20,528 bases of DNA. Source: a virus (lineage: Duplodnaviria > Heunggongvirae > Uroviricota > Caudoviricetes). Shown here piece by piece: positions 6,001-12,000 of this stretch. Made by a program: the position numbers. Within the stretch, counting starts at the first letter, position 1; the number at the start of each line of letters is the position of its first letter. The stretch is taken from the IMG/VR virus record IMGVR_UViG_2778261537_000015, positions 1-20,528 of that record; one strand, given 5' to 3'.

Positions 6001-9000
6001 CAATTTCAGCGTTTCAGTGTAATGCGGTGCTTACAGTTCCGGCTCTCGGCGCGAAATGGAATTTTGTGAACGGGGTTCTTTATACATGGACTCCAACCCC
6101 TCCGGGTCGGCGCGTACTGCAACCACGCCCGGCAGTATTTCACTTTGAGTCTGTAACACGGAGCACTATCTGATGGCACGTAAAGAAATCCCCTTTATCG
6201 TGGAAGACGATAATCGCGACAATGGGAAAGAGTTCATTATCACAGAGATGTCGGCATGGGATGCCGACGAACTGGCACAGGATTTATTCCGCTCCATGGG
6301 GGAATCGGGATTCTCTGGTATTCCTGCTGATGTGATTGCCATGGGGTGTGCTGGCCTTGCCACCCTTGGTCTGAATGTTCTTTCTGCCGCATCGCCGGAA
6401 GTCGCCAGAAAACTTCGTGATCGCCTGATGTCAACTGTGCAAATTGTGATTACACACGAAGGCAGCAGACAGGTGCGAACCGTGAAGCCTGTCGACTTTG
6501 AAGAGCTATCAACCATTCGTCAGGTAATGGATAAGGTATTTAAAGTCAATTTTGATTTTTTAACGATCGCCGGAGAGTGAAGTACCCGTTCATGGAGGAG
6601 GAGACTCTTCCGGCAAAACTCGTTAGCCCCGTAAACGTCACACCATCAATGAACGCCATTATCTGTTCAGGAAAAGCCACTTATACCGATTTGCAGGAAA
6701 GGTTATCTGTTCGTGATATGTATAACCTTCTGGAAATTATCTCGGTGGAATCATTTAACAAGCGGGTCTGGAATAAACATCAGGAGCAGCGATGATTATC
6801 AATGAGTTGGCCTACAAGGTCACAATTAAGGCCGATGAATTCCTGAATGGAAAACGGAAAGTAAAGCAGGAAGCACAAGACCTTAAAAACGAAATAGAGA
6901 GATCTTCATCTGCGATAGAAAGGTCAACAACCTCCTCGATGTCCAAAACGGCTAAGGAGACCGACAAAGCTGCTGTTGCAATGAAAGGGTTGACTGCTTC
7001 ATTTAATGGTTTTTTGGGGCTTTCGACACGCTTTGTGGCTGTTGGCGGTGTGTTGACTGCCGTAGCCATTGGCATTCATCGTGCATTTGAAAGTACTTCG
7101 GAGTCAATTGTAAGAGCCAGTAATATGGGGAGAATGCTTGGAACAAGCGCCAGTAACGTTCTTGGTACTCAGTATGGATTCTCCCGAATTGGTCAGAACG
7201 GCGGCGCGTTCCTTGGGGCACAGATGAGCGCCAGGATGGCGCTTGCCAATATAGAAGACCCAACAATTTTCGGCGGACTTACACCGGAGGCTCAGAATTT
7301 ACTAACAACTGGAGCTAGAACAGGCATTGATATTAGTAAGCTTGGAGGTAAATCAGAAGATGCTCTGGCGGAATTTCAGAAATATGGGAAGAACCATAAC
7401 GAGAAACAGTTAATGCAAGTGCTTTCTGCTTTTGGTTATGACCCTAACCTTGCCGGGGATATTAAAAGCGGAAAAGCTGTGCAGATGGTATCTGAGGAAG
7501 AAAAACGATGGCAGATGACCAAAGAGCAGGAAGAAGCACAGCGTAATATTCTTGCTACGACTAAAGCCCTTGACTCGCAATTTGCTCAGGTTAAACAAGA
7601 ATTAATGGCTACATTTGGCCCTGAAGTGCTTAAAGCAGAACAGGAGTTTTTAGAGTGGCTGAAAAACAACAAGGGTGACATTGTTGGGTTCTTCAGGAAC
7701 CTGAGTACAGGTATTGATGGTTTTGTTAAAGCCGTTGGTGGCGCTGGAAACGCATTGGGCATTCTTGCTGCCATGGCTCTTCTTAGCGGCAAGGGGTTAG
7801 GAAGCAAGCTGGGATTAATCGGTGCTGTTGGTATTTTTGGGCAGATGGTACAAGACCAGTATAAAGATGTTCCTGATGAGATGCGGCCATTCGCATTTCA
7901 GCAGCATTGGCTTGAAAGGCTCATTGGGCTGGATTATGACGATCCAAATAAAGAGATTCCTCCTAACAAAAATGGTGTCAACAGGCCTGACAGAAACAAT
8001 AACCCATTAAATCTTAAAGCTACTGGAAACAGAAGAAGAGACAAAGACGGATTTGCTCAATACTTCGACCCAGAAGAGGGTTGGGAGGCCGCCAGGAATC
8101 AACTGACTCTATACTACAAAAGAGATAAGCTTGATACATTGCAAGGAATAATAAGCAAGTGGGCACCATCCTCAGAAAACAACACAAAGGCGTATATTGA
8201 CCAGGTTTCTAAGTCTATGGGCGTTGGTGCCAATGATAAGCTAAACCTCTCAGATCCAGAGGTTATGGCAAAACTTAGCGCCTATATGGCTAGGCATGAA
8301 GGTTATCCAGATTGGAAGCGGGGTCTTGATTATGGTAACCCAACGAAAAATAGCAATGCCGCTTACTACCAAACTCAGCAAAGATTGGCTAATGGATCTG
8401 CAAATCAATCCTATGCCCAAAGCGTTGTTAACAATTACAACAGCCAGCACATAGGAGAGGTAAAGGTAATTGCCAAAACGGATCAATCCTCAAAACTAAC
8501 CGAAGGATTTAAGGAGTTGAATCGCAGATCATCAGTAAATCAGGCATTTTCAAGTGCAGTGCCTTAGCAGATTTGCTATTGACTAATTTCCCGCATGAAT
8601 GCAATTGTTTTTGCCATTTTCTCAGAGTGATCAATTGTCTCAACGAGAAATTTTCGCGCGGGAGATTGCTCATTCTCGCCTCGGAATGTGGCGTTAATGT
8701 TTTGCATTGCTGCATTTTTCCACATGCTTACTTCTTCTATGGATTGCGATAATGATGCTGAAGATGCAGCGTCAAAGCATATACTATACGATGAATCTCG
8801 TATATCTGACGGCGACTTGCCAATAGCACTAAGTTGATTTCCATACTTTTTTACCATGTCGTTAGCCATATCCTGACAAACTTCATCAATGCTTTTGCCC
8901 ATGCCTGCAACATAAGGAGAAGCATCTTTTATTAAAGACATCATTTTTTCCTTATCTTTGTCGGATGCAGCATAAGCTGCGAGTGATAGAAGAACGGAAG

Positions 9001-12000
9001 AAAATATTGCTATTGTGAAAAATCTGGATTTCATTCTTTCCCCTTGTAAATTTTCCTCTGTTTGTATCCGTTAACTGAAGCAAAAGCACGCAACAGTTAG
9101 TTTTGCGCAGGATACCAGATGATAATGTGTAGTTGGAGTAGCGCGGTTTTAATGCAAGCATTTTGTTTTTGTTTTATGCTTGCTTGTATGTGTGTGCAGT
9201 GCATATAATGCAAGCATAGATCACAACAAAGGTGCTTGCATTATGACTGAAAAGAAAAGTGGTGAAGGGAAAGCTAAGGGCGGGATCGCTCGCGCAAAGT
9301 CGCTGACTAAAGAGCAGCGTTCTGAAATAGCAAAGAAAGCAGCGGCTGCAAGATGGAAAAGTAAGATTCTCAGAGCAACTCATCGTGGTAACTTTTTAGA
9401 TGATTTTGGCATTGATGCTGAATGTTATGTACTGGATGACGAGTCGAAAACTGTCGTTGTTACGAAAACTGGATTATCTCAGCTGCTAGGGATTGGTGAA
9501 CATGCCAGGGATTTAGATCAACTGCTTGGCGCTCAGTATATGAGCAAATACCGAGATCTAGAATTGCAGCGAAAAATGGAAAATCCCTATAAATTTCAAC
9601 TTACTTCGAAGTCTAAAACCGTTCATCAAGCATTAGGTTATGACATTACAGCAATTGTTGATATTGGTAGGGCACTAATAGAAGCCAAAGATAATGACGA
9701 TCTACCACAATCACGGTTAAAGGCCGCGGCTGCAGCGCAGAGACTTATTAATGCCTCCGCTAAGGCGGGAATTAAGGGGGTTGCGTATGCGCTTGCTGGT
9801 TATCGTCCAGAAGTTCAGGCTGTCATTGACGAGTTCAAAGCGTTTGTTCGTGAAGAGGCTCGTCAATATGAAAAGGAATTTCCAGATGAGCTATACGAGG
9901 AGTGGTATCGACTGTACGGCCTGAACAGGCCAGAGAAAGGACGGCCTATTCGTTTTGGGCAGCTAACCAACATGCAGATATACACCCCGCTAGCAAAGAG
10001 TAAAGGTAAAATCCTTGAACAGATTCGAGCTAGCCGAGACGAGAACGGAAAACAATCTGATAAGTTGCACCTGTTCCTTTCTGAAATTGGTGTCAAGGCT
10101 TTGCGTCAGCATATCGGTAAGCTTCTTGGTGTCGCAGCGATGAGTGAGACAAGAGAAGAATACGAAAAAGGAATAGAAAAGGTTTTTGGAAGAATGAAAC
10201 CAGAAATCTAATTATGAAACCCACCGTCAGGTGGGTTTTTTGTTTAGCAGTTCTCTCAACTTTTCGTTCTGTTCTCTGAATTTTTCCTGTATTTCTTTTT
10301 GCATGGCGATCACTTGGGCTTGAAGTTGAACTAGCGCATCAACATTTAGCGGAACCGAGACGCTGTTGATTTTGTCTGCTATTTCCCCAAGAGTATTTTC
10401 TGCATTCAAGGCATCTTCCAGTATCTGCACAATCTCTGAGTTCATAGAGCGCCCGTTTCGTTTGGCTCGTTCAGCTATAGCATCTCGCATTCCGTCAGGA
10501 AAACGGAGGTTGAACTTGTCGTAGTCTTTTACTTGTTTTTCGGCCATTGCAAATCTCTCAAAAAAAATCATGGTGCCATATTGCCATACGATTTCAATGG
10601 TGGCATTATGGCCTTCATGGCGTCACTTTGGCACCAAATAAAGGAGATTAGATAATGCAAGATACACTTTTCACTGAGCGCAAAAATATCAAACTCAACC
10701 TTCGCCTTCCATCACGGCTGAATGAAGACCTTCGCCGCCTGGCGGAAATGGACTGTATATCTCTGAACTCTGCAATTGTTCGTTTGCTGGCAAAAGGTGT
10801 TAGGGAAGAGGTGGCGAATGGTCGCTAAAAACAGCGAAGCCCCAATGGCTGCAACCATTGAGGCTTCTAAATTACCAGTTAACCACGAGAAAACTGATAT
10901 GACTAGTTTAGCAATTGCAGATCGCACAATCAATGTTCCATTCCACGGAACAAATCTCTTTTTGGTCAGCATTAACAATGAACCTTACGTTCCTATGAAA
11001 CCCGTTGTAGAAGGCATGGGTATGGTTTGGGCTGCTCAATTTGTTAAGTTAAAACAGAGGTTTGCCAAAGGTATTTCGGAAATCGAAATACCTTCTGCTG
11101 GCGGTAAACAGTTAATGACATGTCTTGCCTTTCGTAAATTTGCGGCTTGGCTTTCAAGTATTCAACCAAACAAAGTCCGTCCTGAAATCCGCGACAAGGT
11201 AATCCAGTATCAGGAAGAGTGTGACGATGTGCTCTACGAGTACTGGACTAAAGGCCATGTGGTTAACCCACGCAAAGCTAAAAAGGCGTTGCCGGGCAAA
11301 ATCACCACTGAACAGCAGGAAGCCATTAAACAACTCGTCATGAGTCGCGGTCAGTCTCTGCCAAAAGAAAAACAGGCTAAGGCGATGATCACCATGTGGT
11401 CGTCACTGAAATCCCATTTTGGATGTTCGTACAAAGAAATCAGTGAGGAGCAGTTTACCGAAGCACTGTCACTTGCTGCTCGTATTCCGCTTGAAGGCGA
11501 ATTCATCGGCAAGTCGAAACATAATGAGATGAGTTGTTTTGATTGGAGGATGAATGTTCATAACCTGAACTCGGCGTGCATTCATCTTGATGCCATGTAC
11601 AGAATATGGAGAGACGAAATGGAACCCGCTTTGCGATTGCTTGGCTCTCCGGTTGCGACCAGATTTTGCGGAAGAATTGCAGATTGCTATTCCGTAACTG
11701 CAAGCGTTAAGAAAAGTCTGGAGGATGCCGCAGGGCTGAAAGGCTTACAACCATTTTAACTACCTGCACGAAAAGTGCAGGTCAAGAACAAACGCAACGA
11801 CCCAGCTTCGGCTGGGTTTTTGTTTAATGGAGAGTAGATGGGCATAATCGATTTAAACACAGCAGACATATTCAATGCTATCGGTGGTGGCTCTCCGCTT
11901 TCGATTATCGACAGCGTTCTGCATCCTCAGTATGTGATTCGTGACAGGGAAACTGGCGAGGTTGCTCTTGAGTTCAGCGGTATGGCATCCGTACAGCCAA

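Follow-up and report, generated by a model that had tools for sequence, protein, structure and literature searches.

A family of predicted periplasmic proteins encoded antisense to the tape-measure gene of E217-type prophage tails, and its possible role in superinfection exclusion

What is the purpose of a small, apparently secreted protein whose gene lies within the tail region of a prophage, on the opposite strand and only a few nucleotides from the end of the tape-measure gene? The question is raised by a 20,528-nucleotide stretch of DNA from a Caudoviricetes virus (IMG/VR record IMGVR_UViG_2778261537_000015, positions 1 to 20,528), which as a whole is called the window in the following. 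The gene concerned is an open reading frame (ORF) of 152 codons, here termed the target. A first-pass annotation, made from the sequence alone, had described its product as an exported protein without recognisable domain and had guessed at a role in superinfection exclusion or lysozyme inhibition. Our analysis leads to a tentative answer, to which we assign a probability of about 45%: the target would be a periplasmic superinfection-exclusion factor acting against incoming tails of the E217 type.

The ORF listing returned the 152-aa frame as annotated (Table 1). Between lineages, its pN (nonsynonymous differences) of 0.15-0.36 is far below its pS (synonymous differences) of 0.62-0.89, and the target is therefore a real gene under purifying selection. 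It has its own ribosome-binding site, as had been claimed, and an AAGGA equivalent of this Shine-Dalgarno (SD) sequence is kept in every lineage. The N-terminus of the protein reads MKSRFFTIAIFSSVLLSLAAYA followed by ASDK, that is, MKSR, 18 uncharged residues and A-Y-A at the predicted cleavage site in front of AS. A rule-based check located the n-, h- and c-regions together with acceptable -3 and -1 residues at the same alignment column in 24 of 24 aligned homologues, so that the proposed Sec signal peptide with cleavage after AYA was borne out. The homologous signal peptides contain one or two K/R residues, an h-region of 11-19 residues, A, S, V or T at position -3 and A or S at position -1. 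A lipobox cysteine at +1 was found in none of the 24 homologues (the residue is A, V, I or G), nor did any mature chain contain a transmembrane (TM)-like segment, the highest 19-residue Kyte-Doolittle mean being ≤0.96. By these rules, the target product is consistently predicted to be a soluble, Sec-exported periplasmic protein. The candidate function of a virion structural protein was rejected: the target is antisense to the late operon, its product is secreted by prediction, and no support for such a function was found.

The two cysteines, C53 and C86, are invariant in the family alignment (A1). No domain was recognised, in agreement with the first-pass annotation: Pfam (E up to 1), PHROGs, NCBIfam and PADLOC gave zero matches for the target, and the PDB sequence profile returned noise only (E ≥0.24). 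In PADLOC-DB 2.0 (E up to 1), there was no match for the target, for the proteins P0035 and P0036, for the slot protein of locus L006 or for the P63C protein. An AlphaFold2 (AF2) model built on the family alignment had a mean predicted local distance difference test (pLDDT) score of 87, with values >90 across most of the mature part, and comprises five long helices and one short helix (residues 25-38, 49-69, 75-95, 99-116, 119-123, and 125-151). A Foldseek comparison, which had been suggested together with the structure prediction, revealed no meaningful relative of the model in the PDB (best E 1.2), and the best E value against viral models was 0.53. Thus, the mature target is confidently modelled as an all-helical bundle without a solved structural relative.

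A word-indexed search of 5.8 billion proteins yielded 29 homologue clusters. Wherever the source names bear an organism, it belongs to the Enterobacterales (Escherichia, Enterobacter, Citrobacter, Salmonella, Yersinia, Cronobacter), and all cluster labels read 'hypothetical' except for one generic JGI (Joint Genome Institute) label. An exhaustive profile search of 1.84 billion cluster representatives recovered only 9 family members. The target gene itself is present in one of 5,426 complete E. coli genomes, and tblastn gave no match in plasmid or phage records. Distant members retain the signal peptide and the core motif C...MV.KYG..L..IG..P.DIR...C.DA...E..W, and some possess an additional C-terminal domain. 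Both cysteines are present in all distant members except one; their retention even where only the core motif is shared fits an oxidising compartment. A 121-aa version of the protein, annotated in many database entries (P0003 cluster, 209 contigs including a 4.8-Mb E. coli chromosome), covers only 80% of the 152-aa form. It probably starts at an internal methionine (residue 31 or 32) and thereby loses the signal peptide. We favour the 152-aa form because the SD sequence and the N-terminus are conserved.

By its gene content, the window is a portion of a lambdoid prophage with a tail of the Pseudomonas phage E217 type. The tail genes are arranged in the order sheath (E217_gp31_N / DUF3383), tube, two small chaperone-like ORFs, a gene for a 591-aa protein, hub, plug, baseplate-J, and wedge. 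The earlier assignment of the 591-aa protein as the tape-measure protein was confirmed by this gene order and by PHROG matches: phrog_873 and phrog_2013 ('lytic tail protein') align with the greater part of the protein, and phrog_2276 ('tail length tape measure protein') matches the C-terminal domain (residues 388-552). In phmmer searches, residues ~395-520 matched PDB entry 7q47, 'Endolysin' (the Enc34 catalytic domain), with E = 1.8e-10, and the N-terminus of phage Gp29 (9vvp) with E = 8.9e-13. The PHA02564 domain of Enc34 is muralytic and has Glu131, Trp79, and Tyr95 as key residues (PMC8943055). A glutamate (in RHE), a tryptophan (in KWAP) and a tyrosine (in AY) are aligned between the tape-measure domain and the Enc34-type matches. 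Since the tape-measure protein contains an Enc34-type muralytic domain with the catalytic residues aligned, a part of it is likely to act in the periplasm. In relatives of the tape-measure protein, the first ~320 residues are ~45% identical and the last ~70 are shared, and the part in between is either an Enc34-type domain or an SLT transglycosylase domain. The target and the tape-measure gene are convergent and, as noted before, separated by a gap of 8 nt (from the gene end at 8567 to the stop codon at 8576-8578), in which a scan detected no terminator-like hairpin.

This arrangement is not peculiar to the window. Among the 13 family-carrying lineages that were examined, 12 have the target homologue convergent with the 3' end of the tape-measure gene, either abutting or overlapping it. 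Other island genes (P63C, Arc, Ant, KilA-N, and others) are variably present around the linked pair; in the window, the order is tape-measure gene, target, P63C gene, Arc-like gene, Ant gene, and hub gene. An Arc/Mnt-like gene, or such a gene plus one ORF, directly precedes the target on the same strand in six loci (L004, L005, L008, L030, L035, and L036). Three loci from different species (L010:8001-14621, L019:112-7504, and L020:707-7337) encode a P4-type primase (Zn_Ribbon_Prim/Toprim_3/DUF927). They have the gene order primase, small ORFs of ~107 aa (L010 and L020) and 60 aa, a full-length tape-measure homologue (584-595 aa), and, convergent with it, an ORF for a secreted protein. The fetched flanks of these loci lack sheath, tube, and baseplate genes, and the loci look like satellites or islands with a tape-measure and slot module of their own.

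How could a protein of this kind exclude other phages? We propose that the prophage would express the target from the promoter-like element described below or, in a number of lineages, from the final position in an Arc/Mnt-like operon. The exported protein would then act in the periplasm on envelope penetration or DNA delivery by similarly tailed incoming phages. It might do so in one of two ways. The target may bind the tape-measure protein of the incoming phage at its exposed, muralytic C-terminal part, in the manner of Spackle or Imm of phage T4; alternatively, it may mask a periplasmic host factor that the tape-measure protein needs.

A muralytic protein on a contractile tail also brings to mind bacterial weapons. 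In type VI secretion systems (T6SS), genes for periplasmic immunity proteins are as a rule found beside those of the muralytic proteins that the contractile machine delivers. The target could accordingly be an immunity protein against bacterial peptidoglycan-hydrolase weapons, such as T6SS effectors or related tailocins, instead of phages, and the muralytic domain of its neighbour would suit that role. All genomic contexts are, however, prophages or satellite-like islands in which genes for head, lysis, and integration functions occur; tailocin or T6SS loci were not among them, and the target shows no similarity to known immunity families. We regard this explanation as extremely improbable.

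The position of the target next to the tape-measure gene turned out to be part of a more general pattern. A scan seeded with the conserved N-terminus of the tape-measure protein, with one genome per species, gave 11 loci. In 7 of them, the junction between the tape-measure and hub genes, hereafter the slot, is occupied by a signal-peptide ORF in convergent orientation or by a fragment of one. The slot is empty in the other 4, and the two flanking genes are adjacent to each other in L013, L015, L021, and L023. The six intact slot ORFs represent six sequence types, designated A (the target family) to F. Comparisons by hhalign between the cargo types, and of these with SieA, revealed no relationship (all probabilities <4%). 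Type C (L014) matches phrog_8545, labelled 'superinfection exclusion Sie-like', with E = 3.5e-16, and also the Pfam family tRNA_anti-like above cutoff; family matches were obtained for none of the other cargo types.

The slot ORFs have a common upstream architecture, consisting of the GC-rich hairpin AAAAGCCCACCTGAGTGGGC, followed by TTGCGTGTTATTGC.TCAGTTAATGG.TAGAAT and a leader. The leader retains the motif ...AAAACAYAAGGA... in all lineages and ends in CATAAGGA, 6-9 nt before the ATG. One and the same element precedes types A, B, C, D, and F (alignments A3 and A4). The conserved unit comprises roughly 65-85 nt, usually with the hairpin ahead of it; a distance of 24-27 nt separates the end of the -10-like hexamer from the ATG, and GTGTTA or GTGTTT lies 16-17 nt further upstream. 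This upstream DNA is better conserved than the coding sequences of the slot ORFs, and every cargo type has a strong SD sequence and a signal peptide. Individual promoter scores, obtained with permissive scoring, were not above the shuffled control. We infer that the element is promoter-like because its position is conserved across very divergent loci.

The element was also found in loci without cargo. In the empty slots of L013 (6809-6913) and L021 (6788-6860), both the hairpin and the TTGCGTG...TAGAAT element are kept and point towards the tape-measure stop codon. In the empty slot of E. coli TW10590 (L007:4815-4900), the promoter-like element and the leader are present without the hairpin, and the leader runs into the tape-measure stop codon. 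If active, the element of an empty slot would give rise to an antisense transcript running through the tape-measure gene's 3' end. As the element persists in empty loci and precedes unrelated cargo, the slot is best described as a conserved expression site that can be loaded or left empty. Sequence comparison thus reveals the tape-measure/hub junction of E217-type modules in temperate Enterobacterales phages as a conserved expression site with exchanged, unrelated secreted ORFs.

The proteins in the slot vary in their domain content, too. Long members of the target family (241-242 aa; L019:6776-7504 and P0036) have a second, cysteine-containing C-terminal domain. This domain recurs in slot type D (L018:6837-7604) and as a fragment in L017:6828-7181. 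Its occurrence in the long type A proteins, in type D and in L017 indicates a modular build of the slot proteins. Among isolated phages, a related tail was found only in the Edwardsiella phages Edno5 and GF-2 and a Vibrio phage, all of which are distant (26-28% identity). Edno5, an isolated temperate myovirus (L038:5258-5749), has a Mnt-like/Arc/Ant island at the same tape-measure/hub junction. There, the tape-measure gene is followed by a gene for a 76-aa protein with two TM segments, and the convergent position is taken by a 71-aa protein that combines a membrane anchor at its N-terminus with a zinc ribbon.

The conservation of the upstream element admits the reading that the antisense promoter or its RNA is the conserved functional unit, which would insulate or down-regulate the late tail genes, with the ORFs as mere passengers. 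Such a unit would account for the presence of the element in empty L013 and L021 (with hairpin) and L007 (without hairpin), always facing the tape-measure stop, for an upstream region more conserved than the coding sequences, and for the missing terminator between the convergent genes. Yet the target is under clear purifying selection and has invariant residues, and each cargo type has its strong SD sequence and signal peptide. Because of this selection and the retention of SD sequences and signal peptides, an antisense function can supplement the protein function but not replace it, and we consider it very unlikely as the sole explanation.

A further question is whether the target acts in the lysogen or in the lytic cycle. 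As a lytic-cycle accessory, it would restrain muralytic activity in the producing cell, for instance by setting lysis timing or preventing lysis from without by virions already released, rather than protect lysogens. The predicted periplasmic location and the adjacent gene for a muralytic virion protein are compatible with this role, T4 Spackle is an early lytic gene of comparable role (PMC7677548), and the weak -35 region of the promoter-like element could require a phage-encoded activator. We nevertheless judge the lytic-cycle role to be distinctly unlikely. Being antisense to the late operon, the target would be exposed to collision with strong late transcription; in six lineages, an Arc/Mnt-like gene precedes it, and the P22 counterpart of that gene is expressed in lysogens; and the phage already has a separate, standard lysis cassette, with holin, GH24 endolysin, and 'lysis protein' genes.

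Comparison of closely related prophages revealed how the pair of genes is exchanged. The window and the prophage of E. coli TW10590 (L007) are 98-99% identical on both sides of a differing block, the blastn breakpoints of which are at 6873 and 9045. Identity ends 82 nt into the tape-measure gene and returns 11 nt before the target ATG. The block sets in at about codon 28 of the tape-measure gene and takes in the remainder of this gene, the target and the SD sequence; with these breakpoints, the tape-measure gene and the target differ as one unit. Between the window and L006, by contrast, identity extends until 11 nt before the tape-measure stop, and the slot gene and the remaining island are replaced. 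The Yersinia loci L003 and L004 share, at 97% identity, the target together with 79 nt of its upstream DNA and the final ~40 tape-measure codons. In the same pair of prophages, which are otherwise 93-99% identical, the muralytic domain alone has been swapped (SLT in L003:10594-11314, Enc34/PHA02564 in L004:10594-11362), which demonstrates domain-level cassette exchange inside a tape-measure gene.

Table 1. Position of the target, its expression signals and its neighbour in the window, and the lineages in which the pair is linked
Feature	Coordinates	Strand	Remarks
Target ORF	8576..9034	-	152 aa, ATG start, stop codon 8576-8578; pre-protein of an orphan secreted family
Signal peptide, codons 1-22 (MKSRFFTIAIFSSVLLSLAAYA)	8969..9034	-	Predicted SPase I cleavage after AYA
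Mature domain, 130 aa, 14.3 kDa, pI 5.2	8579..8968	-	Predicted all-helical bundle, conserved C53 and C86
SD sequence AAGGGGA	9039..9045	-	4 nt before ATG; within family-conserved leader motif
Slot promoter-like element	9061..9093	-	TTGCGTG 9087-9093; GTGCTT (-35-like) 9084-9089; 17-nt spacer; TACAAA (-10-like) 9061-9066
Tape-measure gene, 591 aa	6792..8567	+	E217-type contractile tail; gene order, phrog_873, phrog_2013, phrog_2276
Muralytic domain of tape-measure protein, aa ~395-520	7974..8351	+	Enc34-endolysin / PHA02564 type
C-terminal tail of tape-measure protein, last 70 aa, pI 9.7	8355..8564	+	Conserved
Block differing from E. coli TW10590 (L007)	6874..9044		blastn breakpoints 6873 and 9045; flanks 98-99% identical
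12 linked lineages			window/L001/L024-27; L002; L003; L004/5/28/29; L008/9; L010; L011/12; L019; L030; L032/33; L035; L036/37

The target is part of a mobile unit and differs in base composition from its surroundings. The first-pass annotation had called it AT-richer than the tail genes, and the offset is genuine yet modest, with a GC content of 39.0% compared to 44.4% in the tape-measure gene and 45.1% across the window, and a GC content at third codon positions (GC3) of 0.333 versus 0.409. Divergence of the N-terminus of the tape-measure protein is correlated with that of its C-terminal tail (rho 0.76). The divergence of the target family is correlated with neither of them (rho -0.05 for the N-terminus and -0.06 for the C-terminal tail, 12 lineages). 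Mirror-tree co-evolution of the target with the tape-measure protein was therefore rejected. Taken together with the linkage, the rho values suggest that the cargo, although joined physically to the end of the tape-measure gene, undergoes evolution and exchange independently of it.

Envelope morons, bor and lom among them, are common in lambdoid prophages. The target could likewise be a periplasmic fitness or virulence moron, concerned with envelope stress, lysozyme or antimicrobial resistance, or adhesion, for which the end of the tape-measure gene is just a convenient insertion site. Its AT-richer composition and independent exchange, the missing co-evolution signal, the lack of similarity to known defence proteins, and one family member (P0033) that is located elsewhere in its prophage all speak for a moron of this type. 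On the other hand, the family is confined to one type of tail module and to satellite-like islands with the same tape-measure gene, and it is absent from the plasmid and isolated-phage records that were searched. Moreover, a fast turnover of unrelated secreted cargo in a single slot is more typical of arms-race loci, and one slot-mate matches a PHROG with a Sie-like label. On balance, we find a fitness moron rather unlikely.

Several observations weigh against exclusion as the function of the target. There is no sequence or fold similarity to the known exclusion proteins or lysozyme inhibitors that were searched, and the 'Sie-like' label of the PHROG matched by type C is annotation only. One of the 13 lineages breaks the linkage, as P0033 (L034) is encoded at the distal end of the tail-fibre gene cluster. 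The muralytic domain of the partner is of the Enc34 type in 7 of the 12 linked lineages, of the SLT type in 4 and untyped in 1, and the identical protein P0021 adjoins an SLT-type domain in one context and an Enc34-type domain in another. With this 7/4/1 split and P0021 beside both domain types, the family is not tied to one type of enzyme, and a strict inhibitor of the Enc34-type domain was rejected on the grounds of P0021 and the four SLT-paired lineages. To this we add the lack of correlation between the divergence of the family and that of the tape-measure protein, and the possibility that adjacency to the tape-measure gene could merely reflect a permissive insertion site for an immI-like island. 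Finally, the -10 hexamer of the window, TACAAA, is degenerate in comparison with the family consensus TAGAAT, and a stricter consensus sigma-70 scan found no site with ≥9/12 matches upstream of the target in the window. Given these two results, the window allele may be weakly expressed. The earlier guess of an exclusion or lysozyme-inhibitor role thus received circumstantial support from the muralytic tape-measure domain and from the slot with its Sie-like PHROG match, but homology or fold likeness to SieA, Spackle, and the inhibitors did not materialise, the partner domains are of two types, and no co-evolution was seen.

The upstream region of the window allele deserves separate mention. The first-pass annotation had postulated a divergent promoter region shared with the P63C-like gene. 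This holds only in part: a promoter-like element is indeed located near the target, whereas most of the intergenic DNA (9045-9242) belongs to the P63C module. The stretch 9045-9242 is shared by a phage without the target, and the upstream DNA that moves together with the target is limited to about 60-85 nt. In the window, the hairpin is replaced by sequence of the P63C module, and the TTGCGTG block and the leader are retained; L025, which has a gene 99% identical to the target, retains the hairpin. The P63C-domain gene (9243-10211) occurs with ≥98% identity in many target-less E. coli genomes (most of 97 matched) and is an independent module. The near-palindrome ATGCAAGCAT/ATGCTTGCAT occurs four times within 90 bp at 9152-9241. 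These copies bracket a promoter-like site (TTGCTT-18 nt-TATAAT, 9180-9209) just upstream of the P63C start at 9243. The number of near-palindromes over the whole window is not above chance and the clustering alone is notable; the cluster looks like an operator array.

The exclusion hypothesis can be extended to the entire junction, although we hold the extension to be doubtful. The tape-measure/hub junction would then be a hypervariable exclusion locus with a fixed antisense promoter and swapped secreted blockers. In this scheme, the target would be a new helical-fold inhibitor of the tape-measure protein or of its muralytic domain, and P4-type satellites might use the tape-measure gene and slot as a pair, both to escape the exclusion exerted by their helper and to impose their own.

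If the target does act in superinfection exclusion, it would represent a soluble periplasmic exclusion factor of a temperate contractile-tailed Enterobacterales phage with a fold unrelated to Spackle, and thus a second, independent example of blocking the periplasmic step of tail penetration. Of relevance to phage therapy and to the biology of prophages, it would also explain strain-specific resistance that is missed by receptor typing and by catalogues of defence systems; PADLOC finds nothing at this locus. The combination of a conserved promoter-like element with exchangeable secreted cargo provides a simple rule for finding more such proteins, as at least five unrelated types share the element. 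Furthermore, the slot offers a test bed for identifying the part of the tape-measure protein that is vulnerable in the periplasm. Should the exclusion hypothesis be wrong, the target would remain a clear case of an orphan moron that is both secreted and rare, and an explanation for the conserved antisense element would still be called for.

How does the target compare with known systems? The gene llp of phage T5 adjoins the receptor-binding protein gene. Llp and Cor resemble the target in that an exclusion gene stands beside the virion gene that it blocks, in opposite orientation, and that both are exchanged together. They are, however, outer-membrane lipoproteins that mask the receptor, whereas the target has no lipobox and neighbours the tape-measure gene. 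The tail-assembly-interference (Tai) system (PMC11364771) was considered for the satellite context and set aside, since the target is exported and Tai acts on cytoplasmic tail assembly. The bacterial lysozyme inhibitors Ivy, PliC/MliC, PliG, and PliI are, like the target, small secreted proteins of Gram-negative bacteria, and they neutralise periplasmic muralytic enzymes. These inhibitors consist mainly of beta-sheets and insert a loop into the active site (PMC7677548); the target model, in contrast, is all-helical, and the inhibitors were absent among its Pfam, PDB, and fold matches.

A functional parallel may be seen in phage-encoded envelope proteins that halt DNA entry at a step dependent on the tape-measure protein, namely T4 Imm, HK97 gp15, Ltp of TP-J34, and Sie2009. 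Imm binds the tape-measure protein gp29 directly (bioRxiv 10.64898/2026.03.06.709160), and exclusion by gp15 and Ltp depends on the tape-measure protein (PMC10883804). In contrast to the target, which has neither a TM segment nor a lipobox, these proteins are membrane-anchored or lipoproteins, and they are not homologous to it.

In its genomic layout, the target locus parallels the immI region of P22, as the first-pass annotation had recognised. The P22 order is gene 16, a 22-nt gap, the convergent sieA, orf59a plus mnt, arc, ant, and the tailspike gene; in the annotated record, mnt bears the description 'maintenance of lysogeny' and sieA is listed with a promoter of its own. In both cases, a small prophage gene is convergent with the gene for a virion protein, in P22 with the injection-protein gene 16 at the mnt end of immI, and the analogy is strengthened by the six loci in which an Arc/Mnt-like gene precedes the target. 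SieA blocks DNA injection, and mutations that allow escape affect the C-terminal regions of gp16 and gp20; SieA is a multi-pass protein of the inner membrane and occurs as three sequence types that are <30% identical (PMC10883804). The proteins themselves differ. SieA has several hydrophobic spans and its partner is a podovirus ejection protein, whereas the mature target is predicted to be soluble, without a TM segment, and neighbours a contractile-tail tape-measure protein. An hhalign comparison of A1 with SieA of P22, the P22 type alone being compared, gave a probability of 0.1%.

The last comparison concerns Spackle of T4, a small periplasmic protein made with a cleaved export signal and folded as a helical bundle with a disulfide, which inhibits the tail lysozyme via a basic patch and thereby excludes superinfecting phage (PMC7677548). 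No sequence or fold similarity to Spackle was detected for the target. Mature Spackle has 75 aa, compared to 130 aa of the target, and is the product of an early gene of a virulent phage rather than of a temperate prophage. The presumed counterparts differ as well, with a T4-lysozyme fold on the spike in one case and a PHA02564 or SLT domain on the tape-measure protein in the other. Nonetheless, the target is, like Spackle, small, exported by prediction, helical in its model, and acidic, it contains two cysteines, and its gene adjoins that of a basic, tail-borne muralytic domain. The target, which stands outside Spackle and every other family, resembles Spackle in compartment, architecture class, cysteine pair, and charge.

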